From an uncultured Gammaproteobacteria bacterium (lineage in GTDB: Bacteria > Patescibacteriota > Microgenomatia > CAZETR01 > Amesbacteraceae): a stretch of 64,000 nt of DNA. The notes beneath the pieces are model-generated. The model ran no database searches. It was not told the DNA's origin and was given only the letters and a program-made list of their open reading frames with translations. The position numbers and the translations under genes were made by a program. Positions 6,488 to 63,456 of this stretch are shown piece after piece (positions within the stretch are counted from its first letter, which is position 1; each line of letters starts with the position of its first letter). The stretch is from the NCBI GenBank assembly GCA_964366335.1, contig CAYITQ010000001.1, positions 41,336 to 105,335 of the forward strand, written 5' to 3'.

Positions 6488-8041
6488 ATGTTAAGGAAAC
6501 TTGGTTTTATTTTAGCACTTGGGTTGGTCTTGAGGATAGGACTTTTGACCAAAGTTCCGTCTGAGCTGTTTGGAGACGAAGTTGATGTGGGTTATCAAGC
6601 GTATTCTTTATTGAAAACCGGCCAAGACATTTACCGCCAAACTCTGCCTTTTTATGTTCATTCCCTAGCTGAATGGCGGGCACCCCTTCTCATGTATGCC
6701 ACCGTCCCGACAATTGCAGTAGCCGGTCTCAATGAATACGGCGCCCGCCTGCCAGAAGTGATTTTTGGGGTTTTAGGCATAGCCATAATATTTTTATTGA
6801 CGAGGAAATATTCTGTGGCTCTAGCTTTGGCAATTATGCCCTGGCATATTCACTATTCTAGGGCTGCTTTTGAAGTTGTACTCATGCTTGATCTAATCAT
6901 GCTGGGAACACTCTTGTTTCTCAAAAAACGTTTTTTGTTAGGTTTTATATTTTTTGCCCTGAGTCTTTATACATATAGTACTGCCATGTTGTTTGTCCCG
7001 CTGTGGATAGGCTATTTACTTATCAAAGAAAAAGCTTTTCCAATCTTGCAGGGACTGGTTTTTGGATTGTTGATAACACCACTTATTTATTTTATTTTTT
7101 TGGGTCCTGCCCGCGACCGGTTTGGGATTCTGAGCCTGACAAACAACCGCGAAATAATTGACAAAGTCTTTACACTCAGAAAAGAATCTTCTTCTCCTTA
7201 CATAAAATTCTTTGTAAATAAATATTTCATGGTCGGGGGAGAATGGTTTATGAATTATTTACGGCCCTTCTCGTCCGAATTTTTGTTTGTCAGGGGAGAC
7301 CCTGTTATGCGCCATAGCATTCAAGCGATCGGACAATTATTACCCCTGATGGCACCATTTTTGTTAATTGGTCTCTATGTCTTGGCCAAGAAAAGACAAT
7401 GGCTGTGGCTTGTCTGGTTGGCTCTTGCTCCCATCCCAGCATCTCTGACTTCTGATGGTGGCTATCATGCCACCCGCCTGTTTCTAATGGTCCCGCCACT
7501 TGCTGTCGCCATCGGCACCGGTCTCTCTCAAATTAAAAACCGCCTGTTACTTGTCTCCTGTCTCCTGTTACTATCAGCCCAACTGGTTTGGGCCGGCTAC
7601 TATTACCTCAATCATTATTCCAAACAATCCTGGCGTTGGTGGCATGTGGGTTACAAAAATATTCTTACCCAAATCCCCGCTCTCAGTGAAAATTATTCCA
7701 GGATATTTATAAACAACACTTATGAGCCGGCCCTGATGCGGTTTTTGTTTTGGACCAAATATGATCCTGCTAAGTTTCATAAGAACTTTACGGATGACAA
7801 ACCCTTAGACAATATTGTTCCCGGATATGACGGCTTTAGTCTGGATGGTAAATATTTCTTTGGCGCTTTCAACGGAAAAGAAAAACTTTTTCTTCCGGGA
7901 AGTCTATATATGATATCCCAGCGCGATGATGTGGGGGGAGATTGGGATTGGCGGGAATCACCTCCTGATAACATAAATCTAATAGGCGCCAGTAGCAATC
8001 TGTACGGTCAAGCGGTATTTTATTTGGTATCCAAAAAATGA
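6488..8041 (+). CDS. GT-C fold membrane glycosyltransferase, PMT/ArnT-like (GT39/GT83-type)
   Basis: About 12 TM helices. Loop-1 GDEVDVGYQAYSLLKTGQD 'DE' motif characteristic of the PMT/ArnT family. C-terminal soluble domain. Confidence 0.8.
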   Translation: MLRKLGFILALGLVLRIGLLTKVPSELFGDEVDVGYQAYSLLKTGQDIYRQTLPFYVHSLAEWRAPLLMYATVPTIAVAGLNEYGARLPEVIFGVLGIAIIFLLTRKYSVALALAIMPWHIHYSRAAFEVVLMLDLIMLGTLLFLKKRFLLGFIFFALSLYTYSTAMLFVPLWIGYLLIKEKAFPILQGLVFGLLITPLIYFIFLGPARDRFGILSLTNNREIIDKVFTLRKESSSPYIKFFVNKYFMVGGEWFMNYLRPFSSEFLFVRGDPVMRHSIQAIGQLLPLMAPFLLIGLYVLAKKRQWLWLVWLALAPIPASLTSDGGYHATRLFLMVPPLAVAIGTGLSQIKNRLLLVSCLLLLSAQLVWAGYYYLNHYSKQSWRWWHVGYKNILTQIPALSENYSRIFINNTYEPALMRFLFWTKYDPAKFHKNFTDDKPLDNIVPGYDGFSLDGKYFFGAFNGKEKLFLPGSLYMISQRDDVGGDWDWRESPPDNINLIGASSNLYGQAVFYLVSKK

Positions 8042-9258
8042 TTCGTAAATTACTTATATTTTCGGTAGTGATTATATTATTTGTCTGGCGGATTTTTCTT
8101 TCGGTCAACGCCAAGCATGGCGACATGTACAATAATATTAGCTGGGGAAGGGTAGCCTACAAACAGGAAGGTCTGGCCGGATATTATGAATTACCCAAAG
8201 AGGTCTGGTCTCACAGCCGGCCCAACCAGCCACCTGGTAGCATTTGGCTTCATCTTGCATCAGAAAATATTTATTACTCAACTGATAAACTGATAAACTG
8301 GCTAAACGGTAAACTACCGGTGTTTCCCTCAACGCTGGTTTGGTTTTGGCAGGATCATGGTGAGGTTATCTCGATCAAAATATTTTCAATATTAGCTGAC
8401 TTTGCGATAGCCCTTTTATTGTATAAAGCCGGCGGAAAAGGATTGGCTTTGATTTACCTGGTTAGTCCACCCATGTGGTACAACTCAAGCTACTGGGGCC
8501 AGACGGATCCGATTGTAGCGGCCTTAGCACTCTGGTCAATATACTTTCTGATCAAGGGAAAACTAGCCAGATCCGGCATACTTCTCGGACTTTCTTTGAT
8601 TACCAAGGCTTCGTGGGCGCCACTAACACTCTTCTATTTAATTTATTTTTGTCAAAATTTTCCCAGAAAAGTCTATAATTTGGTATTTATACCAGTAACG
8701 GCTATTTTGACTGCTTGGCCGTTTCACCCACAAACAGATCTCGTTTTTTGGCTGTACGATTTGTTTGTGACCAGAATACTGCCGGGAGAAACTGCTTTAG
8801 CTACCGTGGGTGCTTTTAATCTACATCACATAATCTGGGGTCAGATGGTCAACCATTGGTTTTCGACTATTTTAGCCATGATTATCTTAATTCCCTTAAT
8901 TATATATATGGCCATTAATTTGTTTCGGAAATCCGACCCCTTGAGACTTATTTATTGGCTGGCTCTCTTATTTTGGGCTTTCTTTTTGTTTAATACCAAA
9001 ATGCACGAACGCTACCTTTATCCCATTTTTCCGTTATTATCTTTTTTATTGGTTTTGAAACCGACTATAAAATTATTGATAATATACGTGCTAATCTCGC
9101 TGGTATTTTTGTTTAATATGTACTACATGTGGTATGCGCCCAATATCCCATGGTTGATGTCGCTGTATACACCCGAAGTTCTAGATTTCGTGAGTTTGGT
9201 TAATATTATTTTGTTTATCGCCTTTTTTAAGCTAAAATCAAGTTATGTTCAAGACTAA
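8038..9258 (+). CDS. polytopic membrane protein, probable GT-C-like glycosyltransferase
   Basis: 406 aa, many TM helices. HGDMYNNISWG loop near the N-terminus. Translationally coupled (ATGA) to the upstream PMT-like gene. Confidence 0.45.
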   Translation: MIRKLLIFSVVIILFVWRIFLSVNAKHGDMYNNISWGRVAYKQEGLAGYYELPKEVWSHSRPNQPPGSIWLHLASENIYYSTDKLINWLNGKLPVFPSTLVWFWQDHGEVISIKIFSILADFAIALLLYKAGGKGLALIYLVSPPMWYNSSYWGQTDPIVAALALWSIYFLIKGKLARSGILLGLSLITKASWAPLTLFYLIYFCQNFPRKVYNLVFIPVTAILTAWPFHPQTDLVFWLYDLFVTRILPGETALATVGAFNLHHIIWGQMVNHWFSTILAMIILIPLIIYMAINLFRKSDPLRLIYWLALLFWAFFLFNTKMHERYLYPIFPLLSFLLVLKPTIKLLIIYVLISLVFLFNMYYMWYAPNIPWLMSLYTPEVLDFVSLVNIILFIAFFKLKSSYVQD

Positions 9259-10828
9259 CTGGATAGTGGTAGGATTTATGGTCTTGGGATTTGTGCTTCG
9301 AACAGTTTGGCTTGCTAAATATCCGGCTGGTTTCACCCCGGACGAGGCTGCCTTTGGCTACAATGCCTATTCAATCTTGCAAACAGGTAAGGATGAGTGG
9401 GGAACTCCTTGGTGGCAATTGTTTTCCTCAAATATGCGCTCTTTTGGCGATTACAAGCTTCCCCTCTATACTTTCTTGGCCATTCCTAGTATAAAACTGT
9501 TTGGTTTAAATGAATTTGCCACCAGACTTCCAAATGCGATTATTGGGACATTGGCCATAGGGGCGATATATTTATTGACAAAGAGATTGTCCGCTGCCGT
9601 AATTCTGACACTCTCGCCCTGGGCAATTAGTATGTCCCGGGGGGCATTTGAAGCCAATCTCGCCACCTTGTTTTTGCCTCTGGGAATATATTTATTTTTG
9701 AGAAACAAATATTGGCTCAGCGCAATTATTTTTGCTTTGAGCTTTTATTCATATCATTCAGCAAGACTCGTGACACCAATAATCATTCTCATTCTGGTTT
9801 TGTATAAAAAAGTGAATAAAGAAGTATTACTACCAAGTTTACTTTTGGGTATTTTGTTAATTCCGGGATTATTCTCGATGGTGTCTCGAGGTAGTGCCCG
9901 GACGGCCGATGTCAGTATCATCAGTCCGACTGGTGGTTGGAGTGCAGTAGCCGATCGGAGATTTGAAGCCATTGTTGTTGGACTTCCGGATTCTGTCAGC
10001 AGATTCTTTTCCAACAAACCAATTTATGTAGTATCTGCTTTTGTCAAAAATTATTTGTCATATTGGTCACCACAATTCTGGTTTACTAGTGGGGCTGGCG
10101 AAGCTACTTATGGCATGATTACCGGCCGCGGGACATTTTATTATGTTGAAATCATATTCTTGGCTGGATTTTTAATATTATTTATCCGAAACCCCAATAA
10201 AGAATATTTGTTTATCCTGTTACTGGCAGCTATCAGCTTTGTTCCATCAGCTTTATCCAAAGGTCCTGGATATGCTGCCAACCGTGCCGTCATCGCCCTG
10301 CCATTTTTAATTATGATGCTCTCTCTGGGATCAGAATTTATATTAAAGAAAAAATCCTTAATTATTCTAACTTCTATCTTCTACCTTCTATCTTCCGTAT
10401 ATTTTATAGAGGACTACCTCTACCATGCACCCAAAAATAGTGCTAGGTCAATGAATTATGGCTGGACGGATTTGATGCCGAGGCTAATGCCAATAGCCAG
10501 TAGATTTGAAGACGTCAGATTTAGCAGATCACTTTCCGAGCCACATATATTTCTGGCTTTTTATACCAAGGCCGATCCAAAAGTTTATCAGCAGTATTCT
10601 TCGGGGTGGCTGGAATTTGAAAAGAAGGGCCTGAAATTTCTGGATCAATATGATGGTTATTATTTGGAAAAATTCCGCTTTGGGGATTTGAAGTATGGAG
10701 AACAGGTAACTAAACCAACCTTATATATAGGTAGACCGGATGAATTTCCGGACGATACCGGTTACTATATCAAAACGTTTTATCCGGACGGAACGCCAGA
10801 CATGATGGTAGCAGAAAAACAACCATGA
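9245..10828 (+). CDS. GT-C fold membrane glycosyltransferase, PMT/ArnT-like
   Basis: FTPDEAAFGYNAYSILQTGKDEWG DE motif. Multi-TM core plus C-terminal domain. Paralog of 6488, 12351, 14518 and 16020. Confidence 0.8.
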   Translation: MFKTNWIVVGFMVLGFVLRTVWLAKYPAGFTPDEAAFGYNAYSILQTGKDEWGTPWWQLFSSNMRSFGDYKLPLYTFLAIPSIKLFGLNEFATRLPNAIIGTLAIGAIYLLTKRLSAAVILTLSPWAISMSRGAFEANLATLFLPLGIYLFLRNKYWLSAIIFALSFYSYHSARLVTPIIILILVLYKKVNKEVLLPSLLLGILLIPGLFSMVSRGSARTADVSIISPTGGWSAVADRRFEAIVVGLPDSVSRFFSNKPIYVVSAFVKNYLSYWSPQFWFTSGAGEATYGMITGRGTFYYVEIIFLAGFLILFIRNPNKEYLFILLLAAISFVPSALSKGPGYAANRAVIALPFLIMMLSLGSEFILKKKSLIILTSIFYLLSSVYFIEDYLYHAPKNSARSMNYGWTDLMPRLMPIASRFEDVRFSRSLSEPHIFLAFYTKADPKVYQQYSSGWLEFEKKGLKFLDQYDGYYLEKFRFGDLKYGEQVTKPTLYIGRPDEFPDDTGYYIKTFYPDGTPDMMVAEKQP

Positions 10829-12372
10829 ATAAATTTCTATTAGTTTTAGTCCTGCTTTTGATTCCTGCTTTTGGCTTGATGCTTAGACCTGGAGTTTATA
10901 CCATGCATGATTTTCATGTCTTCCGCCAGCAACAATTTGAAAAATGTTTGCAGATAACCAAAAACTTTCCGTGCCGATGGTCCGGCGATGCCGGATTAGG
11001 TTATGGAGAACCAGTCTTTAATTTTTATGGTCAATTCCCATATTGGATTGGAGAAGTATTCAGAATATCAGGATTGTCAATTTTGGATTCTGTCAAAGCC
11101 AATTTTATATTGACATTAATTGCATCGGCGGTGGCGATGTACTTTCTTGCCCGGAAATTTTGGTCAAATTCAGGAGCCTTAGTCTCTGCGGTATTCTATG
11201 CCTATGCACCTTATCGGGCTGTCGATATTTGGGTGCGGGGAGCACTCAATGAATCTCTGGCTTTTATCTTTTTTCCTTTGATACTTTTATTTATCAAAGA
11301 ATTTATATCTACAAACAAGAATAAATATTTATTTTGGCTAATATTATCACTGGCAGGACTGACACTGACACATAATTTGTCGCTTTTGGTTTTTGCTCCA
11401 TTTGCAATTATATGGAGTATATTTTGGTGGTGGAAGAGCAATAGATCTATTCATTTAATTTATGATTTGACTAGCGCAGGATTAGCAAGCGTTCTGTTAT
11501 CAGCCTTTTATTTATTGCCTGTCATATTTGAAAGTAGTTTAGTAACTCTAAATCAGACAACTTCCGGTTATTATGATTTTCATTTGCATTACGCGACTCT
11601 GCGACAATTATTTCTTTCCACTTTTTGGGGATTTGGCGGATCTACCTGGGGTCCCAATGATACCATGAGTTTTGCGGTCGGACATTTACATTGGATATTG
11701 GCAATAATATTAGTCGTGTTCGTGTTGATAAAAAAAAGAAACAAAGAAATATTATTTTTTATCTCTCTCGGTCTCTTTGCTATCTTTCTTACTCACGGTA
11801 AATCAGACTTTATCTGGAATCTGGTTAAACCCATGGCTTATATCCAGTTTCCCTGGCGGTTTTTGACTATGTCCACCTTATTTTTATCGCTGGCGATGGG
11901 AGCCGTTACAAAATTGATTCCAAAACCGATATGGATTGTTTTATTGGTGCTGGGAATAACATTTTATGCTGGGAATTTCCACTCGGATATCTGGAGAGAT
12001 ATTACAGACAGTCAGCAATTCAGTGGCCAATTATGGGATGAGCAGAGAAGCTCGGCCCTGTCAGACTTCTGGCCAAAATCGGCCAAGCTTCCAAATAATT
12101 TCGCTCCCAAATCACCTGAAATAATTCTGGAGACTGACAGCTATCAAAAAATCCGCTATCCGATTGTTTATTTTCCGGGTTGGACGGCACGAAGCAATAA
12201 ACAAAAATTATTTATTTATCCAAGTGGGGAATTAGGTTTGATTACTGTGAGGGCTCCGGTAAATTCAAATATAAAATTATCTTTTGAAGATTCGCCGGTC
12301 AGAAAAATCGGAAACATTGTCAGTCTGATTACCTTATTTGGATTAATGATTTGGATGTGGAAAAAATCTTAA
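10825..12372 (+). CDS. polytopic membrane protein (possible YfhO/GT-C-like)
   Basis: 515 aa. N-terminal TMHDFHVFRQ loop. About 12 TM helices. C-terminal soluble domain ending in a TM anchor. Confidence 0.45.
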   Translation: MNKFLLVLVLLLIPAFGLMLRPGVYTMHDFHVFRQQQFEKCLQITKNFPCRWSGDAGLGYGEPVFNFYGQFPYWIGEVFRISGLSILDSVKANFILTLIASAVAMYFLARKFWSNSGALVSAVFYAYAPYRAVDIWVRGALNESLAFIFFPLILLFIKEFISTNKNKYLFWLILSLAGLTLTHNLSLLVFAPFAIIWSIFWWWKSNRSIHLIYDLTSAGLASVLLSAFYLLPVIFESSLVTLNQTTSGYYDFHLHYATLRQLFLSTFWGFGGSTWGPNDTMSFAVGHLHWILAIILVVFVLIKKRNKEILFFISLGLFAIFLTHGKSDFIWNLVKPMAYIQFPWRFLTMSTLFLSLAMGAVTKLIPKPIWIVLLVLGITFYAGNFHSDIWRDITDSQQFSGQLWDEQRSSALSDFWPKSAKLPNNFAPKSPEIILETDSYQKIRYPIVYFPGWTARSNKQKLFIYPSGELGLITVRAPVNSNIKLSFEDSPVRKIGNIVSLITLFGLMIWMWKKS

Positions 12373-13841
12373 TAATAATTATTCTTGTGACCGGCATCGT
12401 TTGGAGATTGCCGTATTTTGCACCCTCTAGTTTCAATTGGGATGAAGTTTCTCTCGGATATAATTCTTATTCAATGTTGAAGTCTGGAGCGGATGAATGG
12501 GGTATAAAAATGCCAACAATATTTCGAGCTTATGGTGATTACAAGCTTCCGGTATATGTCTACATGACCACACTCTGGCCGCAATTCCCCCGCACTACAT
12601 CTATCATTGCAGGCGTACTGACAATGCTGATTTCCTATTTATTGGTCCGAAAAATATTTAATAAAGAAACTGCGCTTGTTACTTTGGCACTTGTCACTCT
12701 GTCACCCTGGACAGTCATGCTCTCTCGTTTGGCTCTCGAGGCAAACTTAGCCGTTTTATTTATTTCCTTGGGCATGCTCTGCTTGGTCTCCAAAAAACAC
12801 CTCTGGTCAATAATCTTTTTTGGCATCTCGGTTTGGACTTACAACAGTGCGCGAGTATTTACTCCTTTATTTTTAGCTTGTTATTTAATCATAAACAAAA
12901 ATTATAAAAAGTTTACTTCTATGAACTATATACTATTAATTATTTTCTTTTTGCCGATGATATATCAATTATTAAACTCCACAGGTCAAGCACGATACAG
13001 TAAATTGTCACTTATAGACGACGGAGCTATAGGCAAAATAAATAAATTACAAACAACTCAATGGGGAGGACGCATGGTTTACAACAAAGCCACTTATTTT
13101 GCAGCCGCTTTTGCCAAAAATTATGTATCATATTTATCACCCAGTTTTTTGTTTATCAAAGGTGGCGATCACTATCAATTCAGCGTCCAAAATTATGGTC
13201 TTTTGTATCTAATATGTCTGCCTTTTTATTATATTGGATTAACAAAAGTTTTTAATAATAAATTACTTTTATTGTGGCTCTTAATAGCTCCAATCGCAGG
13301 AAGTATTACCCGTGATAGTCCTCACACCCTTCGAGCCATCACAATGCTGCCATTGCCAATGATACTTACCGCTCTTGGTGTAGTATCTATATTAAAAAAA
13401 TATTATTTAGTAATATTGCCAATTATTATATTATCTTCGATAAACTATCAACTAGCTACTAACTCCTATCTCCTAAACTACTCATGGTCTTGGCAATATG
13501 GCTATAAAGAAGTAGTTCAATTAATCAAACAAGACTACGATAAATACGATCAGATTATTTTTACCAAAAAATATGGTGAACCGCATGAATTTGTAGCCTT
13601 TTATTGGCCCTGGGATCCGGCTGATTTTGCCAAAAGTAAATCCTGGGACTATCATGCCAATTGGTATTGGGTCAACGAACTGGATAAAATTAAATTTGTA
13701 AATGATTGGGAAATGAAATCATATGTATATAAACCCAAGACACTAATTATCGCCAGTCCGGAAAATATTCCCGCGGGATCCGAAATCAAGCGAATTAATT
13801 TCCTAGACGGCAAACCCGCTTTTATAATTAAAGAATTATGA
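12351..13841 (+). CDS. GT-C fold membrane glycosyltransferase, PMT/ArnT-like
   Basis: FNWDEVSLGYNSYSMLKSGADEWG DE motif. Start is TTG at 12351 (alternative GTG at 12357). Overlaps the upstream gene. Confidence 0.75.
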   Translation: MDVEKILIIIILVTGIVWRLPYFAPSSFNWDEVSLGYNSYSMLKSGADEWGIKMPTIFRAYGDYKLPVYVYMTTLWPQFPRTTSIIAGVLTMLISYLLVRKIFNKETALVTLALVTLSPWTVMLSRLALEANLAVLFISLGMLCLVSKKHLWSIIFFGISVWTYNSARVFTPLFLACYLIINKNYKKFTSMNYILLIIFFLPMIYQLLNSTGQARYSKLSLIDDGAIGKINKLQTTQWGGRMVYNKATYFAAAFAKNYVSYLSPSFLFIKGGDHYQFSVQNYGLLYLICLPFYYIGLTKVFNNKLLLLWLLIAPIAGSITRDSPHTLRAITMLPLPMILTALGVVSILKKYYLVILPIIILSSINYQLATNSYLLNYSWSWQYGYKEVVQLIKQDYDKYDQIIFTKKYGEPHEFVAFYWPWDPADFAKSKSWDYHANWYWVNELDKIKFVNDWEMKSYVYKPKTLIIASPENIPAGSEIKRINFLDGKPAFIIKEL

Positions 13842-14443
13842 TAGTATTTATTGATGAGTCTGGGATTCATAAGCAAATAGGTCATTCGAGTGCTTCGGTA
13901 GTTTACGTTTGGACTCAGGATTTGGATAAATTTGAAAAAGGAATTGAGAGTTTAAATCAAAAGTTGAAAATAAATTATTTTCATTGGACTGAAAGTAGTT
14001 GGGAATTAAAAGAAAAATTTTTAGTCGGTGTCAGAAAATTAGATTTTCTATTTAAAGTTATCGTTTTTGATAACCCCATTAAATATCAGCAAATAATCGA
14101 GGTGGTCTTTAAGCATTTATTGGTGGAAAATGTGGATAAAGTATTCATTGACGGCAAAAAACCCGAATGGTATGAACGGAAACTAAAAAAAGTTTTAAGG
14201 GATATGGGAAACTCGGTTAAAAAACTGAAGACGATAAGAAATGAGTCGGCACATCCAGGAATCCAATTGGCAGATGCAATTGCTGGTTTATATAGGTACC
14301 AAGCCGATAATCCAAATTCTAAAATTGCGTCGGAGTTAGTGAAGAAATTAAATAAAAATGAAGTAATGTCAAGTAGCTTTAATGCCGATAATTATTTTAC
14401 CAAGAAAAACCCCGACAAAAGCCGGGGTCAGCGTCCCGGATAG
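13838..14443 (+). CDS. DUF3800-like protein (predicted RNase-H-like fold, soluble)
   Basis: N-terminal MIVFIDESGI and C-terminal HPGIQLADAIAGLY motifs match the DUF3800 pattern (YIDESG ... QLADxxAG). No TM segments. ATGA-coupled to the upstream PMT gene. Confidence 0.5.
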   Translation: MIVFIDESGIHKQIGHSSASVVYVWTQDLDKFEKGIESLNQKLKINYFHWTESSWELKEKFLVGVRKLDFLFKVIVFDNPIKYQQIIEVVFKHLLVENVDKVFIDGKKPEWYERKLKKVLRDMGNSVKKLKTIRNESAHPGIQLADAIAGLYRYQADNPNSKIASELVKKLNKNEVMSSSFNADNYFTKKNPDKSRGQRPG

Positions 14444-14517
14444 TTCACCATTGGTGTACTTTTCCACACGGGAATTTGTCACCGGTAGCTAGTTATGAGA
14501 TTATTATACGATAACTT

Positions 14518-16023
14518 ATGAAAATGTCAAGATTAATGATACTAATTTTTATTGTTTCTCTTGGTCTTACACTTAGACTGTTTTACTTAGACTCGCGTCC
14601 GGTGGGTTTTACCTGGGATGAAGCGGCCTTGGGATACAACGCCTATTCATTACTAAAGACGGGAAAGGATGAATATGGGAAAATTTTGCCGGTGGTATTT
14701 AAATCCTTTGGCGATTACAAGCCCGGATTATATATATATCTTACTGTCCCGGCCATAAAAATATTTGGTCTGTCAGAATTCGCCACCCGATTACCATCAG
14801 CGATCTTTGGAACGTTATTAATTGTCGTTGTGTATTTATTGGTTTCGAAATTACTTAGCGCTCAGCACCTAGCCCTTAGCACGGCATTTCTTCTTGCGAT
14901 TAATCCCTGGTCCATTCACTTCTCCCGTGGTGCCTGGGAAGCCAACATAGCGCTATTTCTGACGACATTAGCTACATTATTGTTTATAAAAAAGCGCTAT
15001 ATATATTCAAGTTTATTTTTTGGATTAACGCTATTTACCTATCAGGGGGCCAAGATGTTTACCCCGCTCTTAGTTTTATCACTTTTGATAATTTATAAAC
15101 CAAATATTAAAAAACTGTTTTGGCCAGGAGTATTAGGATTACTTCTGTTATTACCAATCCTTTGGAATCTTGATTCACAATCCGGAAGGTTGAAGGTCTT
15201 TAGTATCTTTAATTATCAGGGAAATTTAGTCAGGGGAATTACCCAGCGTTACCTAAATCACCTTTCTCCGAAATATTTGTTTTTTACGGGAGACTGGTCA
15301 AATTTGCGTCAGAGTATTCCCTATTATGGCTACTTCCACCTGCCCGAAATTATCACCATCGCAATCGGTCTGATTGTTCTTCTAAGAACTAATAACCAAG
15401 TAACCAAGCTACTAATAACATGGCTATTAATTGTTATTTTACCTTCCGCCCTATCCCGTGATATTGTCTCTGGTGTCCGCTCTCTGCCTATGGTAATACC
15501 GTTAGTAATTATGTCCGGAATCGGACTTGCAAAATTATTTTATTATCACCGCCTTTTATACATTTATACATTTATACTTTTATCCTTATTTATTTTATTC
15601 TTGGATCTCTATTTTATCCATGCTCCCAATTTCGTAGCCCGTGACATGATGTATGGTTATAAACAAGCTCTTCAAATAATCAAACCGTACTTAGATAGGT
15701 ATGATAGGGTAATATTTACAGACAAACTTGGTCAGCCGTATATATATACTTTATTCTATTACACAATAGACCCAGGCAGTTATCAAAAACAAGCAAATTT
15801 AATATTAGATTCCCAGGGGGATGTAGGAAAAGTGGAAAAGTGGGGTAAGTTTTTGTATCAGCCACCCGATTGGCGATATCAGCGGGGTGACAACTCAACC
15901 ATATTTGTGGGTGATAATTACGAATTGCCCGATCAGGATATGAATCCGGTAAATTTAATTAAATTGGGTGAAGTTTACTATCCAAATGGCAAACACGCGC
16001 TTAGAATAGTGGCTCTAAAATGA
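14518..16023 (+). CDS. GT-C fold membrane glycosyltransferase, PMT/ArnT-like
   Basis: FTWDEAALGYNAYSLLKTGKDEYG DE motif. Contains a heptamer-repeat tract at 14854-14882. Confidence 0.8.
   Translation: MKMSRLMILIFIVSLGLTLRLFYLDSRPVGFTWDEAALGYNAYSLLKTGKDEYGKILPVVFKSFGDYKPGLYIYLTVPAIKIFGLSEFATRLPSAIFGTLLIVVVYLLVSKLLSAQHLALSTAFLLAINPWSIHFSRGAWEANIALFLTTLATLLFIKKRYIYSSLFFGLTLFTYQGAKMFTPLLVLSLLIIYKPNIKKLFWPGVLGLLLLLPILWNLDSQSGRLKVFSIFNYQGNLVRGITQRYLNHLSPKYLFFTGDWSNLRQSIPYYGYFHLPEIITIAIGLIVLLRTNNQVTKLLITWLLIVILPSALSRDIVSGVRSLPMVIPLVIMSGIGLAKLFYYHRLLYIYTFILLSLFILFLDLYFIHAPNFVARDMMYGYKQALQIIKPYLDRYDRVIFTDKLGQPYIYTLFYYTIDPGSYQKQANLILDSQGDVGKVEKWGKFLYQPPDWRYQRGDNSTIFVGDNYELPDQDMNPVNLIKLGEVYYPNGKHALRIVALK
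14854..14882 (+). repeat. degenerate heptanucleotide tandem tract (CTTAGCG CTCAGCA CCTAGCC CTTAGCA C) within the coding sequence
   Basis: 7-nt periodicity read directly from the sequence. Shares the core AGCACTTAGCCCTTAGCAC with tracts at 16351, 16513 and 17003. Confidence 0.55.
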
Positions 16024-17630
16024 AAAAATATATTCCATTATTTTTGATTTTAATTTTGGCTACAGTATTACGTGTCTGGAATATCTCTGGTAGCCCTTCG
16101 GGGCTCAATGCCGACGAAGCAGCTCTGGGCTACAACGCTTATTCTCTGATGTTGACTGGAAAAGATGAGCATGGCCATCCTTGGCCCGTTAATCTGGAAT
16201 CTTTTGGCGATTTCAAACCGGCTGGTTATGCCTATATATTAATTCCCTTTGTCAAAATCTTTGGTCTTACCGAATTCGCCGTCCGCCTCCCCTCGGTAAT
16301 ATTTGGGGTATTGGGAGTATTGGGAATTTATTTGTTAACCTACGAACTACTTAGCACTTGGCCCATAGCCCTTAGCACTGCTCTTATGCTCACAATTTCC
16401 CCTTGGCATTTACACTTTTCTAGAGGAGCTTGGGAAGTAAATGTCTCAACAACGTTTATAGTTTATGGTTTATGGTTCATAGTAAAATGGCTCAAAAGTC
16501 CAAAGTTTATATACTTAGCCCTTAGCACCTGGCACCTAGCACTGGCAATGTATTTCTATCAATCTTCCCGCGTCATCGTTCCACTATTGGGTCTAGGAAT
16601 ATTTATCATGTATTTCAAGAATTTTAAAACAAACCTCAAGCAAACAATAGTTTCTGGATTATTGTTGTTGGTATTATTATTACCTTTAATAATTTCGGTT
16701 ATAAGATCTGACGCTACATCCAGATTGAGCGGCGTAGGCTTATTAGCCGATTCGGGACCTACTGAGCGAGCCAAGGAACTTCGTATTCAGCATGGGGATC
16801 TCAAATCTATTCCTTCCAAGCTTTTGCACAATAGACCCGTACAATATGGTCTAAGATTTATTCAAAACTATCTCGATCATTTCGATGGTAATTTTCTGTT
16901 TGTAAACGGCGACGTCATCGAGCGTAGTAAGGTCCCGGAAATGGGTCTCTTTTATCTGACCGATTTTATTTTTCTAGCTCTTGGAATCGTTTATCTGCTT
17001 CGTACTCAGCACTTAGCCCCTAGCACTAATATAATCTGGCTCTGGCTTCTAATCGCACCAGTAGCTTCCGCCATGACATTCCAGACTCCTCACTCTCTCC
17101 GCGCCTTCAATATGGTAATTCCTATGACAATAATAATCTCTGTGGGAGTGTATCAAGTAATAAAATTTAAAAAACTATTTATCATTTTAATTGTTCCGTT
17201 ATATGTATATCAGCTTTCAGACTATTTGTATAAATATTACGTCCGTTATCCAAAAGAATATCCAGCCGCTTGGGAATATGGTTTTAAAGAACTGGTGGCC
17301 TATACAGAAAGTGTCAAAGACAAATATCCCAAAATCTGGGTGACAGACAAATATGACCAGCCCTATATATTGTTTCTATTTTATTCAAAATATGACCCAC
17401 GAAAGTTTCAGGGCAACCACACCCTTACATTTCGCGACAAATTCAATTTTTCTACTGTACGCGACTTCGATAAATATCATTTTGAATCCGCTCCTTGGGA
17501 CAAAGTCCGCAATCAGCATTCGGCATTGATAGTAGCTGCGCCAGAGGATATTCCAGATCTGGGAGTGGATGTGATAAAAACCATCAATTTCCCAAATGGC
17601 CTCCCGGCGTTTAAAATAGTATCAAATTGA
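16020..17630 (+). CDS. GT-C fold membrane glycosyltransferase, PMT/ArnT-like
   Basis: LNADEAALGYNAYSLMLTGKDEHG DE motif. ATGA-coupled. Contains three heptamer-repeat tracts. Confidence 0.8.
   Translation: MKKYIPLFLILILATVLRVWNISGSPSGLNADEAALGYNAYSLMLTGKDEHGHPWPVNLESFGDFKPAGYAYILIPFVKIFGLTEFAVRLPSVIFGVLGVLGIYLLTYELLSTWPIALSTALMLTISPWHLHFSRGAWEVNVSTTFIVYGLWFIVKWLKSPKFIYLALSTWHLALAMYFYQSSRVIVPLLGLGIFIMYFKNFKTNLKQTIVSGLLLLVLLLPLIISVIRSDATSRLSGVGLLADSGPTERAKELRIQHGDLKSIPSKLLHNRPVQYGLRFIQNYLDHFDGNFLFVNGDVIERSKVPEMGLFYLTDFIFLALGIVYLLRTQHLAPSTNIIWLWLLIAPVASAMTFQTPHSLRAFNMVIPMTIIISVGVYQVIKFKKLFIILIVPLYVYQLSDYLYKYYVRYPKEYPAAWEYGFKELVAYTESVKDKYPKIWVTDKYDQPYILFLFYSKYDPRKFQGNHTLTFRDKFNFSTVRDFDKYHFESAPWDKVRNQHSALIVAAPEDIPDLGVDVIKTINFPNGLPAFKIVSN
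16351..16379 (+). repeat. heptanucleotide tandem tract (ACTTAGC ACTTGGC CCATAGC CCTTAGC ACT)
   Basis: Same repeat family as 14854-14882, at the homologous position of the paralog. Confidence 0.55.
16513..16546 (+). repeat. heptanucleotide tandem tract (ACTTAGC CCTTAGC ACCTGGC ACCTAGC ACTGGC)
   Basis: Same family. Non-homologous position within the same gene. Confidence 0.55.
17003..17027 (+). repeat. heptanucleotide tandem tract (ACTCAGC ACTTAGC CCCTAGC ACT)
   Basis: Same family. Third tract in gene 16020-17630. Confidence 0.5.
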
Positions 17631-17631
17631 T

Positions 17632-18429
17632 ATGAAGAAAATCTTACTATCAGTAGTCCTCGCTACTTACAACGAAGAACGGAATATCGCCAGATGTCTG
17701 GATTCAGTTTGGGAGTTGGCAGATGAAATACTAATTGTAGACGGCAAGTCTACCGATGATACCGTCAAAATAGCCAAAAAATACAAGGCTAAGATTATTT
17801 TAGTTGACAATAATCCCACCCACTTTCATGCTCAGAAAAAAATCGCCATAGACAAAGCCTCTGGTGATTGGATCCTCCAGCTCGATGCTGATGAATGCTT
17901 GACCCCCGAGTTGGTCAATGAAATAAAGGGACACCTCCGAGGTGGCCGAATGGACTCCTCGGAGGTGAATGGGTATTGGTTGCCGAGAAAAAATTACTTT
18001 TTGGGACGGTTTTTGACCAAAGGTGGTCAATATCCCGATTACACCATGCGTCTGTATAGAAACGGCAAAGGTAATTTGCCGGCCCTCGATGTCCATGAGC
18101 AGGCAGTAATTGAGGGAGAAGTAGGGTATTTGATAAACCCCATGTTGCATTATGGCACTCCCGACTTTGAAAATTATCTCGTCCGCAACAATAAATATAC
18201 ATCTCTCATGGCTGAGCAATTTGCCGAGCAAAAAGTTCCCATTAATCTCCTTTACACTTTTATACATTTATTCTTTTATCCATTGCGCGAGTTTGTCTGG
18301 ATATATTTCAGACATCGTGGCTATGTAGACGGGTTTCCAGGCTTTGTCTTTGCCCTATTTTCCGGACTTCGCTTTGCTATTGCTTACATCAAATACTGGC
18401 AAGTTACTAAATATTCGGCACATGATTAA
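17632..18429 (+). CDS. family 2 glycosyltransferase (WaaE/KdtX-like subtype)
   Basis: LLSVVLATYNEERNIARCLDSV...ILIVDGKSTDDT. C-terminal YFRHRGYVDGFPGF amphipathic tail typical of the KdtX/WaaE-type GT2. Confidence 0.8.
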   Translation: MKKILLSVVLATYNEERNIARCLDSVWELADEILIVDGKSTDDTVKIAKKYKAKIILVDNNPTHFHAQKKIAIDKASGDWILQLDADECLTPELVNEIKGHLRGGRMDSSEVNGYWLPRKNYFLGRFLTKGGQYPDYTMRLYRNGKGNLPALDVHEQAVIEGEVGYLINPMLHYGTPDFENYLVRNNKYTSLMAEQFAEQKVPINLLYTFIHLFFYPLREFVWIYFRHRGYVDGFPGFVFALFSGLRFAIAYIKYWQVTKYSAHD

Positions 18430-19408
18430 AGTAGGCTTTATCACAAAATCCATGACCGATGACAATGCCCAGAGAGGAGTCGGTTTCTATGCCAAGCGTC
18501 TGCTCGAAAGGCTAAAGGCTCAAGGCTCAAGGCTCAATATTGAGATTTTAGAAGACAAATATAGTGAAGTGGATATAGTTCACTATCCATATTTTGATTT
18601 GTTCTACCACACTCTCCCCTTATTCCCAAAGACAAAAACAGTAGTCACGGTCCACGACGTCATACCTCTGGAATTTCCAAACGTATATAAGCAAGGTCTA
18701 AAAGCAAAGCTTAATTTGTACTTGCAAGGCCTGGCCTTGCAAACTGTTGGCACTGTTATTACCGATTCATTTTATTCACTCAAAAATATTCATAAATATT
18801 TAGGTGTCCCTCACGAAAAATTGAAATTAGTTTATCTGGCTGCGGATGAAATATTTAAACCAAAAAAAGTTACTAAAAAATATAATTTACCCAAAGATTT
18901 TGTATTGTATGTGGGGGATGTTAATTACAACAAAAATATTCCGGGACTGATCCAAGCCGCGAAGCTTGCAAATTTACCATTAGTCATGGTTGGTAAACAA
19001 GCAGCCGAAGTTGAATCAATGGATTTGAATCACCCAGAACTTGTCCATCTTTCTATGAACTATGAACTAATAACTAATTACCCGATACGGTTGGGATTTG
19101 TCCCAGATGAGGATTTGGTAGATATTTATAATTTGGCAAGCGTATATTGCCAGGCATCATTCTCAGAAGGCTTTGGTCTCAATCCTTTGGAGGCATTGGC
19201 CTGTGGGACACCTGTGGCATCAAGTAATCGTGGCTCTCTACCAGAAATATTGGGTGAAAATGCTGTCTATTTTGATCCCGATGACACTTCACAAATAGCT
19301 AGTGCCATATTGAAGGCCAAAAATAGTAAAATAGACTTCAAATCAAATTTGACTTGGGAAAAAACAGCAAAAGAAACGTTAATGATCTACAAATCACTAT
19401 GTCCATAA
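18422..19408 (+). CDS. family 4 glycosyltransferase (GT4, GT-B fold)
   Basis: C-terminal EGFGLNPLEALACGTPVASSNRGSLPEI (E-x7-E GT4 signature). ATG at 18422 overlaps the upstream stop. Confidence 0.8.
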   Translation: MIKVGFITKSMTDDNAQRGVGFYAKRLLERLKAQGSRLNIEILEDKYSEVDIVHYPYFDLFYHTLPLFPKTKTVVTVHDVIPLEFPNVYKQGLKAKLNLYLQGLALQTVGTVITDSFYSLKNIHKYLGVPHEKLKLVYLAADEIFKPKKVTKKYNLPKDFVLYVGDVNYNKNIPGLIQAAKLANLPLVMVGKQAAEVESMDLNHPELVHLSMNYELITNYPIRLGFVPDEDLVDIYNLASVYCQASFSEGFGLNPLEALACGTPVASSNRGSLPEILGENAVYFDPDDTSQIASAILKAKNSKIDFKSNLTWEKTAKETLMIYKSLCP

Positions 19409-25331: not shown

Positions 25332-26293
25332 AAAAATATCCAAAAATATCAATAATAATTGCTCTTTATAAGGAAACAGCCTATTTTTATGAGTCCGTTG
25401 CCCAATGTTTACAATTGGATTACTCTAATTTTGAAATTTTAATTGGTGTGGATAGGGGAGTGAAACTAAATTTTCGAGATCCTAGGATACGTGTTTTGGA
25501 AACTGGTTTGTTACGTACAGGGCCAGCCGAAAAAAGAGATATAGGAATTATTAGATCAAAGGCTGAATATATTGCTTTTTTAGATGACGACTCTTATCCC
25601 AGACGTGATTGGCTTAAAAAAACGATAAATATATTTGACAAACATCCCGAAATAGCTGCAGTGGGTGGTCCGGGTTTGACTCCACCAATGGATGGCTTTC
25701 GTCAGCAAATAACCGGGGCTATTTTGTCTACTTTTTGGGGGACGGGACCATATGCCTATCGATTTGTACAGAAGCCCAAACGCTTGGTAGACGATTATCC
25801 TGCCTATAATTTGATAGCCAGACGGAAAGACTTGGTATCTGTAGGAGGATTTGATAATAAATTCTATGGCGGTGAGGATACTGCGTTATGTATAAAATTG
25901 ATCAACGCAGGAAAAAAGATTCTTTACCATCCTGAAGTGGTCGTTTACCATCACCGCAGGCATTTTCCGGAAGGATACTTGGCTCAAGTCGGAAATGTCG
26001 GATTGCATCGTGGATATTTCGTAAAAAAATTCCCTTCGACATCATTACGACCTAGCTATTTTATGCCATTGTTTGGGATAGCAACGACTATATTTTTATT
26101 ATTATTTTCGGTAGTTTTTCCGCCACTGATATGGATAGGGGTATTTTTGTATATATTAGGTATTGTTGACGCAATGAAAGTGGCTAACTGGAAAGTTGCC
26201 ATGATTCTACCCCTTTGCATTTATTTGTCACATTTCAGTTATGCATACAATTTTACAAAAGGTCTTTTATTTACAAAATATCTAGAAAAATGA
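25328..26293 (+). CDS. family 2 glycosyltransferase with C-terminal TM helices
   Basis: ISIIIALYKETAYF...ILIGVD, DxD-like FLDDDS. Two C-terminal TM segments. ATGA-coupled. Confidence 0.75.
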   Translation: MKKYPKISIIIALYKETAYFYESVAQCLQLDYSNFEILIGVDRGVKLNFRDPRIRVLETGLLRTGPAEKRDIGIIRSKAEYIAFLDDDSYPRRDWLKKTINIFDKHPEIAAVGGPGLTPPMDGFRQQITGAILSTFWGTGPYAYRFVQKPKRLVDDYPAYNLIARRKDLVSVGGFDNKFYGGEDTALCIKLINAGKKILYHPEVVVYHHRRHFPEGYLAQVGNVGLHRGYFVKKFPSTSLRPSYFMPLFGIATTIFLLLFSVVFPPLIWIGVFLYILGIVDAMKVANWKVAMILPLCIYLSHFSYAYNFTKGLLFTKYLEK

Positions 26294-57529: not shown

Positions 57530-58148
57530 AGATAAAAATAAAATATTGCCACAATGTTTTGCGACGGCCGGACAAGTGTCTGATGATGTGGTTATCGTTG
57601 ATAATACAGATCATAAATTTGTAAATTATTCGGATCAAAAAAATTATGCAGCTGCTCTTTGTAAACATGATTGGATACTATCTCTGGATGATGATGAGTG
57701 GCTGTCTCCCGAACTTATCGATGAACTACAAACTATAAACGATGAACAATATACTGCCTATAAAATCCCAAGACTTAATTATATTTTTGGCAAAGCCATT
57801 TATCATACCAATTGGGGACCCGATGTGGATAGACATGTCTGGTTATACGACAGAAAAAGTTGTGAGTGGGTGGGTAGTGTGCATGAAGAAATTAAAACAA
57901 AAAGGAAGATTGGTCGACTCAAGGGTTTCAAGATTCACCAAAACTATACAACAGTTGAACAGTTTATGAATAAATTAAATGACTACACATCACGCGAGAC
58001 AACAGCCGTCAATCCTGCTTTTGATTTTATTCGCCGGTATATTTGGCACAGAGGATTTCTGGATGGTTGGCATGGATTGTTTTTGAGTTATTTGATGATG
58101 ATCTATCATATTGTGGTATGGGTAAAGAAAAAGTCCTCATCGTCTTAA
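57501..58148 (+). CDS. short GT2-like glycosyltransferase (KdtX/WaaE-like C-terminus)
   Basis: MKISVTIISRDK...VVIVDNTD...LDDDE. C-terminal RRYIWHRGFLDGWHGLFLSY parallels the tail of 17632-18429. Confidence 0.6.
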   Translation: MKISVTIISRDKNKILPQCFATAGQVSDDVVIVDNTDHKFVNYSDQKNYAAALCKHDWILSLDDDEWLSPELIDELQTINDEQYTAYKIPRLNYIFGKAIYHTNWGPDVDRHVWLYDRKSCEWVGSVHEEIKTKRKIGRLKGFKIHQNYTTVEQFMNKLNDYTSRETTAVNPAFDFIRRYIWHRGFLDGWHGLFLSYLMMIYHIVVWVKKKSSSS

Positions 58149-59416
58149 TTTTAATATTGGGACTAGGGTTAAGACTCGTAAACTTAAACCAGAGTTTGTG
58201 GCTAGATGAAGCGGCACAAGCTGTAATGTCTGAAAAGAGTGTAGATGAAATATGGTCTGCACGTCAAGCTGATTTTCACCCACCCTTATTTTATATCCTG
58301 GCTCATTATTGGATACAGGTCAATCGTTTGGAAATATGGTTACGATTATTACCAGTAATGTTTGGGGTAATTTCGATCGGATTAATATATTTATTAGCCG
58401 GAAGAAATAAGTTTGGACTACTCTCTGCATTTTTTCTGGCCATCAATCCCTATCACATTTATTATTCACAAGAATTTAGGAGTTACTCTATGCTCGCGAT
58501 GCTTGGTTTGCTTTCCATGCTTTTTCTGAAACAGAAAAAATATATATTTATGGCGGTCACCAATACCTTGATTTTGTACACTCATTATTCAGGTATGTTT
58601 CTGATTTTAGCTCAAATACTTATTCGCCCTATTACTATTCCCTATTTACTAGTGCCTATTGCCTTATATTCACCTTGGATTCTCAAGTTTGCGGAGCAAC
58701 TCCGGAGCGGAGTAAATATAGATAGCTATTTACCTGGCTGGAGAAATGTCCTGACTCTCTCTCCCGCCAAAGCTATTCCGGAAATAATATTCAAATTTAT
58801 GGCCGGACGGATTAACTTGATGCCTAAATGGATATATGCCATATATATAATTTTTGTATTGGGGGTAACGTCCGCTGGAATATTCCTGAATAGATTGGAA
58901 AGAAAGTTTTTGTGGGTGTGGTTAGGAATACCTATATTGGTTAGTTTTATTTTATCTTTTTGGATTCCTCAAACCCAGCCATTTAGATTACTGTATTGTT
59001 TGCCGGCTCTGATTATGATAATGGCAGGTGCAGCCACCAAATTTCCCAAAACTTTTATCACGCTGATGGTATATATCAGCGTTGTAGGTAATGTATTGTA
59101 TTTCACAAGACCTAGGTTACAGCGTGAGCAGTGGAGACAGGCGATTGATTTTATGCGTATGCAAAATGTTACAGTCGTAGTCAAGTTTTTTGATAAATTT
59201 GCCCCATTTTACTGGTATGATCCCAATTTAAAAGTAGTGACAAGTGACAAAGTAACAAGCGACATGAAGAAGTTTTGGTATATGGAATATCTTACTGGTC
59301 TTACTGACCCTGCCAAATTGACGCAGAAGAAGTTGGAAGCTGGAGGTTGGAAAATAACAGATACTAAAAACTTTGAGGGAGTTGGGTTAATATATAAATA
59401 TGAAAGTCGGAATTGA
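58118..59416 (+). CDS. GT-C fold membrane glycosyltransferase, PMT/ArnT-like (sixth copy)
   Basis: ATG at 58118 (MGKEKVLIVLIL...). LWLDEAAQAVMSEKSVDE DE motif. About 11 TM helices. Confidence 0.7.
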   Translation: MGKEKVLIVLILILGLGLRLVNLNQSLWLDEAAQAVMSEKSVDEIWSARQADFHPPLFYILAHYWIQVNRLEIWLRLLPVMFGVISIGLIYLLAGRNKFGLLSAFFLAINPYHIYYSQEFRSYSMLAMLGLLSMLFLKQKKYIFMAVTNTLILYTHYSGMFLILAQILIRPITIPYLLVPIALYSPWILKFAEQLRSGVNIDSYLPGWRNVLTLSPAKAIPEIIFKFMAGRINLMPKWIYAIYIIFVLGVTSAGIFLNRLERKFLWVWLGIPILVSFILSFWIPQTQPFRLLYCLPALIMIMAGAATKFPKTFITLMVYISVVGNVLYFTRPRLQREQWRQAIDFMRMQNVTVVVKFFDKFAPFYWYDPNLKVVTSDKVTSDMKKFWYMEYLTGLTDPAKLTQKKLEAGGWKITDTKNFEGVGLIYKYESRN

Positions 59417-62842: not shown

Positions 62843-63456
62843 ACTCAAAAGGAATAGGATTTACCACTAAGGATGGGAAGCCGTTGAATGTAGCTAGTGC
62901 TTTGGGAAAAGCGTGCAGGAGAGTCTTGAATTGGTACTGGGATTTTGAGCTAATGATATTACATTTCGTTTCAGAGCATTGCCCGATTGGACCGGTTCGT
63001 TACGCTTTATTTACCTTATCCGGCTTAAAAATGGGACAAGGATCGACTCTACATATGGGGGTTAGGTTTTTTGATCCCAAGGGTATAAATATTGGCGAAG
63101 ATACAATTGTGGGCTTTGGGACATTTTTGGATGGTAGAAAAGAAATCAAAATCGGAAATCATGTGGATATTGCCTCGGAAGTGATGATATACAATTCGGA
63201 ACATGATTTGGATTCAGAGGAATTTACCGCCCGGGAGGAAGCCGTTGTTATAGGTGACTATGTCTTTATCGGTCCTAGAGCCATTATTATGCCCGGAGTA
63301 AAGATAGGTAAGGGAGCAGTGATTGCGGGTGGAGCGGTAGTAACTAAGGATGTGGATGAGTTTATAGTAGTGGGTGGGATACCAGCTAAAGTAATAGGGG
63401 AGCGGAAAAACAAAAATCCTAAATATCATTTGGGCCGGGCCCGCCTGTTTCAATGA
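62815..63456 (+). CDS. hexapeptide-repeat (left-handed beta-helix) sugar O-acetyltransferase
   Basis: Tandem [LIV]G-x4 hexapeptides: IGEDTIVGFGTF...IGNHVDIASEV...IGDYVFIGPRAIIMPGVKIGKGAVIAGGAVV. Confidence 0.8.
   Translation: MLYEQNIKINSKGIGFTTKDGKPLNVASALGKACRRVLNWYWDFELMILHFVSEHCPIGPVRYALFTLSGLKMGQGSTLHMGVRFFDPKGINIGEDTIVGFGTFLDGRKEIKIGNHVDIASEVMIYNSEHDLDSEEFTAREEAVVIGDYVFIGPRAIIMPGVKIGKGAVIAGGAVVTKDVDEFIVVGGIPAKVIGERKNKNPKYHLGRARLFQ

Follow-up and report, generated by a model that had tools for sequence, protein, structure and literature searches.

In-frame heptanucleotide cassettes in glycosyltransferase genes of a groundwater Amesbacteria genome and their likely origin in a dispersed repeat repertoire

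Dispersed heptanucleotide repeats have been on record in cyanobacteria since 1990 and are still without an explanation. Repeated DNA can also be found inside genes; Ogata et al. reportedly described, in 2000, Rickettsia palindromic elements (RPEs), selfish DNA that lies in frame in protein-coding genes. Many bacteria have an excess of heptameric simple sequence repeats, for which a proposed cause is polymerase slippage (PMC4692102). A coding example is the (AAGACTC)n repeat of neuO, carried by the CUS-3 prophage of E. coli K1, which has 3–53 copies, most often ~20, and is out of frame in 65.6% of genomes (PMC13001214). Here we analyze a 64-kb stretch of DNA (the window; contig CAYITQ010000001.1) from Candidatus Amesbacteria, which belongs to the Microgenomates of the candidate phyla radiation (CPR), recovered from Hainich groundwater. 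The whole window is a glycosylation island, encoding glycosyltransferases (GTs) of the GT-C, GT2 and GT4 types, a flippase, methyltransferases and large proteins of unknown function, and two adjacent GT-C paralogs in it carry four tracts of tandem 7-nt units. We favor the reading, to which we assign a probability of roughly 0.55, that the tracts represent a single in-frame cassette in four copies, ~28–30 nt long and made up of four heptanucleotide units (consensus CTTAGCA, equivalent to TTAGCAC), which is drawn from a dispersed and mostly coding heptanucleotide repertoire of Amesbacteria and other Microgenomates that resembles the short tandemly repeated repetitive (STRR) sequences.

The likeness to STRR sequences lies in the 7-nt unit, the short tandem arrays and the specific excess over other periods; in the few unit families that occupy many loci of a genome and are common to related genomes; and in the variation of array sequence among close relatives at conserved positions, for which polymerase slippage is the standing hypothesis. 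The known STRR cases, however, are overwhelmingly intergenic and can be long, whereas in the present case long open reading frames (ORFs) contain 188 of 194 arrays, and the arrays have 4–5 units. These counts come from 80 orthologous loci of GTDB genomes, comprising 1.515 Mb of Microgenomates DNA, the best locus being 83% identical to the window; this is the comparison set used throughout. The arrays also differ from STRR sequences in being in frame, stop-patched at every third unit and placed at predicted protein turns. Their hosts are CPR bacteria of the Microgenomates, whereas STRR sequences were first defined in heterocystous cyanobacteria, with the other known cases in Xanthomonas. As with RPEs, a DNA repeat is found in frame in many unrelated genes, essential ones included, at positions that the protein tolerates, but RPEs are palindromic and ~100–150 bp long, whereas the cassettes are non-palindromic 7-nt arrays of 28–35 nt without folding potential. 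As in neuO, a heptanucleotide repeat in the coding sequence of a surface-glycan enzyme is read in three frames and is in frame at certain copy numbers. In contrast to neuO, which varies among and within strains, the arrays described here have about four copies, are invariant in orthologs and assemblies and are never OFF; they also occur several to a gene and in essential genes.

The four tracts and the two genes that carry them are as follows.
14518..16023, + strand: GT-C (PMT_2/GT39-like) membrane glycosyltransferase paralog with tract 1 (PF13231, PF02366)
14854..14882, + strand: tract 1, a TAGC-family cassette in the GT-C paralog 14518–16023; units CTTAGCG CTCAGCA CCTAGCC CTTAGCA; peptide LSAQHLALST
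16020..17630, + strand: GT-C (PMT_2/GT39-like) membrane glycosyltransferase paralog with tracts 2–4
16350..16379, + strand: tract 2, in the GT-C paralog 16020–17630; units CTTAGCA CTTGGCC CATAGCC CTTAGCA; peptide LSTWPIALST; hotspot 1
16513..16546, + strand: tract 3; units, from 16514, CTTAGCC CTTAGCA CCTGGCA CCTAGCA; peptide LALSTWHLAL; hotspot 2
17003..17027, + strand: tract 4; units, from 17005, CTCAGCA CTTAGCC CCTAGCA; peptide TQHLAPST; hotspot 3

The first-pass annotation of this DNA had reported these tracts, and both its coordinates and its peptides for them are confirmed, as is its statement that tracts 1 and 2, but not tracts 3 and 4, lie at homologous positions of the two paralogs. 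The 19-mer that it gave as their core, AGCACTTAGCCCTTAGCAC, has no verbatim match; the true common core is the 13-mer TAGCCCTTAGCAC, present in three exact copies and one with a single mismatch. When up to one mismatch is allowed, this 13-mer has four matches in the 64 kb, which are precisely the four tracts, against an expectation of 0.06, and a count of four was reached in 0 of 100 shuffles. The possibility that the motif is simply a frequent codon-pair pattern for Leu-Ala-Leu-Ser, raised at the outset as a way to refute the observation, does not hold, since the 13-mer occurs nowhere else in the window; chance or a codon-pair artefact is thus ruled out. All four tracts align as a single 30-nt cassette in a common codon register, CTT AGC RCT YRG CMC HTA GCM CYK AGC ACK. 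They were rightly recognized as repeats of nucleotides and not of amino acids. In a perfect CTTAGCA array every third unit would bring a TAG into frame, and in each tract the deviant unit is the one where TAG would fall in frame, which is replaced by CAG in tracts 1 and 4 and by TGG in tracts 2 and 3.

We found no folding potential of the tracts on either strand (z-scores from -0.28 to +1.66). Nor did they match any Rfam family in a scan of window positions 6–20 kb, in which only a DUF3800-II RNA at 14426–14496 was matched. The folding scores and the Rfam scan rule out that the tracts are a hairpin, a repetitive extragenic palindrome (REP), a miniature inverted-repeat transposable element (MITE) or a known RNA.

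The excess of tandem repeats is specific to a period of 7 nt. The window contains eight period-7 tandem segments at a strict threshold, against 0.3 expected, and 14 at a relaxed threshold, against 1.2 expected. Across the 1.515 Mb of the comparison set, period 7 accounts for 194 segments, period 8 for 47, period 6 for 44 and period 9 for 35, and periods 4, 5, 10 and 11 for 8–12 each, so that no other period comes nearer to period 7 than a 4- to 20-fold deficit. The copy number of the period-7 arrays peaks at four units and seldom exceeds five, and the arrays are often imperfect. Their load is patchy among genomes, even within Woesebacteria, some having 8–12 per 20 kb and many none, and their density is 1.85 per 10 kb in GT-C genes versus 1.26 per 10 kb in intergenic DNA. 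In the GT loci themselves, glycosylation genes carry arrays far more often than other genes do (odds ratio 12.6, p = 9e-7), and most genes of array-bearing operons are free of arrays. Housekeeping regions of related genomes are equally array-rich, with 2.4–10 arrays per 10 kb, which rules out that the arrays are specific to glycosylation genes.

Many Amesbacteria or Microgenomates contigs of the comparison (L006, L011–L014, L016, L020 and others) are titled “uncultured Gammaproteobacteria” or “Pseudomonadales” and are apparently mislabelled records of metagenome-assembled genomes. These contigs carry orthologs that are 52–82% identical to those of the window, in the same gene order.

The arrays recur at defined positions. 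Among 77 orthologs of gene 16020 we counted 50 period-7 segments, against 3–5 for periods 6, 8 and 9, and these 50 fall almost wholly on three sites, which are those of tracts 2, 3 and 4 of the window. Column coverage at the hotspots is 9 orthologs for tract 2, 17 of 77 for tract 3 and 13 for tract 4, whereas the maximum under random placement averages 4.7. An AlphaFold model (pTM 0.69) predicts that the three hotspots are short inter-helix turns of transmembrane helices, together with the adjoining helix ends: hotspot 1 (tract 2) would be the turn joining helices H85–111 and H114–126, hotspot 2 (tract 3) the start of helix H163–179, after a turn, and hotspot 3 (tract 4) the turn joining H313–329 and H334–352.

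At these positions the unit is lineage-specific. In Amesbacteria orthologs the length and register of the arrays at tracts 3 and 4 are constant, and the unit depends on the lineage: TTAGCMC, TCTCTAA, TTGTCAC, CTTGTAT, TTTGCMC, TTTGAGC/TTTGCGY or TTTTGAA at tract 3, and AAGACCA, GAACYAW or CACTACT at tract 4. Tract 1 is an 8-codon insertion relative to most Amesbacteria orthologs, whose shorter loop has no array. At the same position the closest relative, L006 (78% identical), carries a perfect (TTGTCAC)4 that equals the window cassette in length, and in other orthologs the place is taken by (AAAATTG)n or a palindromic insertion. The swapping of units is limited to the tract. Ortholog P0009, which is 70% identical overall, matches tract 3 at 13 of 14 residues, with ±25-residue flanks that are 58% identical, whereas relatives that are 82–83% identical overall match only 3–7 of the 14 residues; the tract 4 peptide is also found in P0001, P0009 and P0010. 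Segment recombination as the source of these mosaic variants is ruled out, since the flanks do not co-vary with the tracts.

The loop of tracts 1 and 2 is also a place where GC-rich palindromic sequences, such as CCCCTCTCCTAAATTAGGAGAGGGG, occur in frame (10–28 residues, for example LYLTPSPSPKLGEGGPGRVGEV). We saw them in L007 (~10310–10380 and 8770–8830), in the tract-2 loop of L014, L016 and L018, and in P0006, P0007, P0051, P0063 and P0086. One palindromic element is present in both adjacent paralogs of L007, and the similar peptides PSPKLGEG and PSPIIGEGAGGEV occur in a Wzy-like protein and in methionyl-tRNA formyltransferase (Fmt) of related contigs. These loop insertions look like RPE/REP-like in-frame elements that are separate from the heptamer cassettes.

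The patching of stops extends beyond the four tracts. In 180 in-gene arrays, the 119 codons that would be in-frame stops show 0.41 deviations per nt, against 0.18 elsewhere; the former value is near the lower limit of one substitution per codon. The patched residue varies in otherwise identical cassettes, being W, Q, S, E or R in the TAGC family and C, W or L in the AAAATTG family. There are no ON and OFF alleles: 0 of 125 arrays in ~430 GT-C genes are out of frame, array copy number is constant among orthologs, and no array has an indel when four independent population assemblies, 99.9% identical, are compared. The search for copy-number variation among strains that the first-pass annotation had recommended thus revealed none, either in orthologs or in the four population assemblies.

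A single GT-C gene is split at an array. In L023 (~8560–8640) an (AAATTGG) array in a GT-C loop is broken by a 38-nt element, CCCTCGACTTCGCTCGGGTCGGTTTGCCTGACTGTTTG, and this is where the gene is split; the cause is this insertion and not heptamer copy number. A similar sequence, CCCTCGACTCCGCTCGGG, lies in the L016 loop. Small elements that insert into heptamer repeats are known from cyanobacteria, and the L023 element may be likened to them. In L003, a 1-nt deletion at window position 15571, in the period-8 array 15555–15583, splits a gene, at 3x coverage only. The few differences of the window from L001 and L002, assemblies of the same population, are tightly clustered at 10004–10039, 10312–10339 and 25993–26084 (six SNPs within 36 nt, seven within 28 nt) and are unrelated to arrays; this clustering suggests strain recombination patches or strain mixing at contig ends.

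Unit families recur across non-homologous genes and across genomes. Between non-homologous gene classes of different genomes, 9.2% of array pairs share a unit, compared with 3.0 ± 0.4% for random heptamers in the same genes. Sharing (distance ≤1) within a locus is 10.3%, a value that 0 of 2000 permutations reached, versus 5.3% for arrays in general. Many different unit families coexist in one genome; the TAGC family occupies four sites in the window and three in L113, and CCGAATA three in L207. The low-GC metagenome contigs that bear patched, in-frame copies of the cassette are very array-dense, with up to 12 arrays in 14.9 kb, and their families are those of the window.

The cassette of the four tracts is found in genes unrelated to glycosyltransferases. 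In an RNase H-like ORF of L113 it encodes LSTQHLAPSTQ, the peptide of tract 4, and in an M50-protease-like ORF it encodes LSTWPLALSTV, the peptide of tract 2; in ORFs for topoisomerase I (TopA) and Fmt it is reversed and reads VLSAK(G/C)QVLS. The names RNase H-like, M50-like and TopA were read from sequence motifs by eye, and the Fmt family is separately backed. A 32-nt cassette in def of one genome is identical at 31 of 32 positions to a cassette in fmt of a related genome, and in the genome with the def cassette the fmt site is filled by a sister-family cassette that differs in length by one codon. In Fmt of Amesbacteria, four variable sites are filled with a mosaic of recurrent cassettes (VLSAKCQVLSV, LLNAQGLSLCAV, MNYELITN, NSQFSIFNQ, LKIENCKLKI, LALSTSHLAL and LPNTEYRILNI), and some of the Fmt cassette peptides are also present in GT genes of the comparison; the Fmt orthologs that carry names belong to Amesbacteria or Patescibacteria. 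At the DNA level, the cassettes of three Fmt-type loci are heptamer arrays, in both orientations, and such arrays also occur in genes for PBP2, Wzy, Def, M50 and SH3 proteins. In the topoisomerase I ORF of L094 (5825–7120), an essential gene, there are in-frame tandem duplications (EASFGHIRDLPQN x2, RRGLSA x2) beside heptamer arrays.

A metagenome scan for the cassette matched at least 120 contigs (L085–L164 among the matches listed); the scan used one unit and no control units, and gives no frequency estimate. Most among the matches listed are (CACYTAG)n arrays that are pure and non-coding, with 4 to >13 copies, in organisms with 29–74% GC, and several are patched, in-frame copies in unrelated ORFs on low-GC contigs. 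In L098, L127 and L145, pure (CACCTAG)n or (CACTTAG)n arrays occupy several sites of a contig or run in both directions along it. Among the three origins offered by the first-pass annotation, “remnants of a small repeat element” comes closest: the tracts do belong to a dispersed heptamer-repeat family.

On our reading, the arrays would be generated and homogenized in a 7-nt register by replication slippage or transient misalignment, and short patches copied from other arrays in the genome would overwrite them. Selection would then act in three ways. Arrays would persist only where ~9–10 arbitrary residues are tolerated, which in the GT-C enzyme would be the three inter-helix turns; only lengths that keep the frame would persist, typically four units (a seed plus 21 nt) or a replacement of constant length; and one base change, TAG to TGG or CAG, would have to do away with the in-frame stop of every third unit. 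The cassettes would accordingly be neutral or selfish passengers and not functional sites.

Several findings weigh against this reading. An array that grew by slippage from a non-repeated seed to four units would be out of frame on the way, and in fmt, def or PBP2 this should be lethal; no frameshifted slippage intermediate was seen when GT-C genes and arrays were checked for frameshift junctions. Units with a stop triplet on the coding strand make up 41% of the 180 arrays, versus 35–42% for random, and show no depletion, which is unexpected if perfect arrays arose first and selection acted later. That a small unit repertoire is common across lineages is not what mutation alone would predict, and the sharing of “house” families within a genome shows no distance decay up to 12 kb. 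Differences in tolerance may not fully account for the ~12-fold preference for glycosylation genes in GT loci, and we neither reconstructed a donor–recipient event nor identified an enzyme. Local template switching among nearby arrays, considered separately as a source of shared units, is not supported by the flat relation of family sharing to distance. We found no account of in-frame heptamer cassettes in CPR bacteria in the literature, our coverage of which was incomplete.

We regard as unlikely, on balance, that a dedicated and possibly template-directed machinery installs defined 4-unit heptamer cassettes in one step, as mobile or written mini-elements. Such a writing mechanism would insert cassettes in either orientation into tolerant protein turns throughout the genome, the GT-C loops of the window being its most used targets. 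It would fit the near-identical 32-nt cassettes in non-homologous genes, the entry into essential genes, where the intermediates of stepwise slippage would be lethal, the regular 4-unit length and the families common across lineages. The patchy occurrence of array-rich genomes is as expected for a factor that is gained and lost. Room for it is left by the period of 7, the few recurrent families, the entry into essential genes and the lack of avoidance of stop units. No candidate gene was identified, however, and the cassettes have neither terminal repeats nor target-site duplications. Pure arrays of the same unit are, among the matches listed, found in very diverse bacteria (29–74% GC). Moreover, the variable residue at the patched stop of otherwise identical cassettes points to independent patching and not to the copying of one finished element.

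It is also quite unlikely that the arrays are functional cis-elements, which would bind a family-specific protein or RNA on DNA or mRNA wherever the protein tolerates them, with possible roles in nucleoid organization, as a recombination signal or in translation pausing at membrane-helix turns. A unit repertoire that is small and common across lineages, ~3-fold over composition, would be consistent with this, as would “house” families that are a genome-level property independent of distance and a periodicity that is kept in position while the unit sequence changes; three 7-nt units amount to 21 bp, or two helical turns. Yet one genome holds many unit families, in both orientations relative to the gene, many related genomes have no arrays, as is true of most genes of the same operons, and the tracts have no secondary structure and no Rfam match.

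The first-pass annotation had also suggested that the tracts are hotspots of gene conversion or recombination that drive the shuffling of paralogs. The proteins of the adjacent paralogs 14518 and 16020 are 36% identical, and tracts 1 and 2, at homologous positions, form the most identical 30-mer of the two genes (25 of 30 positions, against a mean of 15.1) in a background of 50% nucleotide identity. The codon register common to the four tracts would let exchanges keep the frame, and 28 nt is about the minimal length for homologous pairing. In the sliding identity analysis, however, the excess is limited to the 30-nt tract and ends at its borders, the flanks being at the ~50% background, which rules out extended gene conversion between the paralogs. 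Tracts 3 and 4 lie at non-homologous positions, no chimeric paralog was found in the 80 loci, different unit families occupy these sites in orthologs, and unrelated genes and organisms carry the cassette as well. That the tracts mark or promote exchange of the adjacent GT-C paralogs is therefore very improbable.

We give even less credence to the tracts being contingency loci, that is, slipped-strand switches for the phase variation of surface-glycosylation genes, although several features invite the comparison. The unit is not a multiple of 3, the tracts lie in glycosyltransferase genes of a multi-paralog island, arrays within the GT loci favor glycosylation genes with the odds ratio of 12.6 given above, and the coding (AAGACTC)n of neuO is a precedent (PMC13001214). 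But the arrays have only 4–5 units and are often imperfect, none of the 125 examined is out of frame, copy number is constant in orthologs, and the four population assemblies have no array indel. The cassettes are also found in the essential single-copy genes fmt, def, PBP2 and topA, where OFF would be lethal, and several arrays in a gene would be redundant for a switch. With the assemblies, the frameshift junctions and the split GT-C genes all checked, nothing was attributable to heptamer copy number.

Finally, selection at the protein level for a peptide of the Leu-Ala-Leu-Ser-Thr type, or a common codon-pair pattern, can practically be dismissed: the tracts do encode hydrophobic, helix-compatible residues at predicted transmembrane helix ends, but the 13-mer core is confined to the tracts, the 7-nt period puts each unit in a different frame, the deviant unit is always the would-be stop, the reverse-complement cassette in Fmt and TopA encodes the unrelated VLSAKCQVLS, and orthologs swap the whole peptide.

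Besides the TAGC family, the window contains the unit families GTTYATR/CTATGAA, TTGTCAC, TTCTAYC, AAGGCTC and CTATTGC. The GT-C paralogs 6488, 9245 and 12351, which the first-pass annotation had described as lacking the tracts, do lack the TAGC family, but each has heptamer arrays of its own. The further arrays are listed here.
7541..7572, + strand: CTGTYWC array in the GT-C paralog 6488–8041
10361..10401, + strand: TTCTAYC array, 4.4 copies, in the GT-C paralog 9245–10828
12677..12709, + strand: TTGTCAC-like array (ALVTLALVTLS, period 7–8) in the paralog 12351–13841, in the loop homologous to that of tracts 1 and 2
13437..13478, + strand: ACTAYCW array in the GT-C paralog 12351–13841
16448..16489, + strand: GTTTATR/GTTCATA-family array (TFIVYGLWFIV) in gene 16020–17630; window-specific, the orthologs being not periodic at this site
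18501..18545, + strand: (AAGGCTC) array, 4.3 copies, in the GT4 gene 18344–19408; orthologs have other units at the same position
19049..19084, + strand: CTATGAA-family array (LSMNYELITN) in the GT4 gene 18344–19408
57719..57754, no strand assigned: GAACTAY array (reverse complement of the GTTCATA family), outside the called ORFs; ORF 57501–58148 spans it
58635..58664, + strand: CTATTGC-family array in the GT-C-like gene 58043–59416; the family recurs in L017, L028, L050 and L071
63891..63913, + strand: TTGTCAC-family array (LLLSLVTLSLV) in ORF 63453–63938

The GTTTATR/GTTCATA family of the array at 16448 has two further members in the window, at 19049 and 57719, and recurs in L011, L094, L113 and L207, and the cassette peptide of the 19049 array is also found in Fmt orthologs and in a membrane protein of L113. 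The array at 57719–57754 may be coding. Period 8 is the second most enriched period, with four segments observed in the window against 0.1 expected and 47 in the related loci; period-8 arrays of the common unit TTTATACA lie in two different genes, at 15555–15583 and 18251–18284.

The window has at least seven GT-C-type paralogs over 6488–28765 (6488, 8038 of the GT87 type, 9245, 10825 of the PTPS_related type, 12351, 14518 and 16020), plus those at 27233 and 58043, which is an unusually large investment in membrane glycosyltransferases for a genome of probably ~1 Mb. Wedged among these paralogs is one Rfam RNA.
14426..14496, - strand: DUF3800-II RNA (RF02961; 60.5 bits, E = 1e-10; gathering score 43.2), opposite in strand to the DUF3800 gene 13838–14443 and located at its 3′ end

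A Pfam scan of ~30 window proteins contained no reverse transcriptase, no dedicated search for one having been run. A diversity-generating retroelement would call for a nearby template repeat and reverse transcriptase and for adenine-specific differences; the differences among tract variants affect whole units and are not adenine-specific.

Dispersed heptamers of the cyanobacterial type are now seen in ultra-small CPR bacteria with genomes of ~1 Mb, in frame at hundreds of coding positions. The reading frame adds to them a record of register, of copy-number limits and of stop repairs, so that their origin, turnover and copying may be reconstructed from comparative data. CPR peptides such as LSTWHLALST, LKIENCKLKI and MNYELITN would be passengers of a DNA repeat and not functional motifs, and as passengers they will mislead alignments, domain boundaries and the inference of selection. 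Should a dedicated writing mechanism prove true after all, it would represent a genetic element of a new type or a new mechanism of protein diversification.

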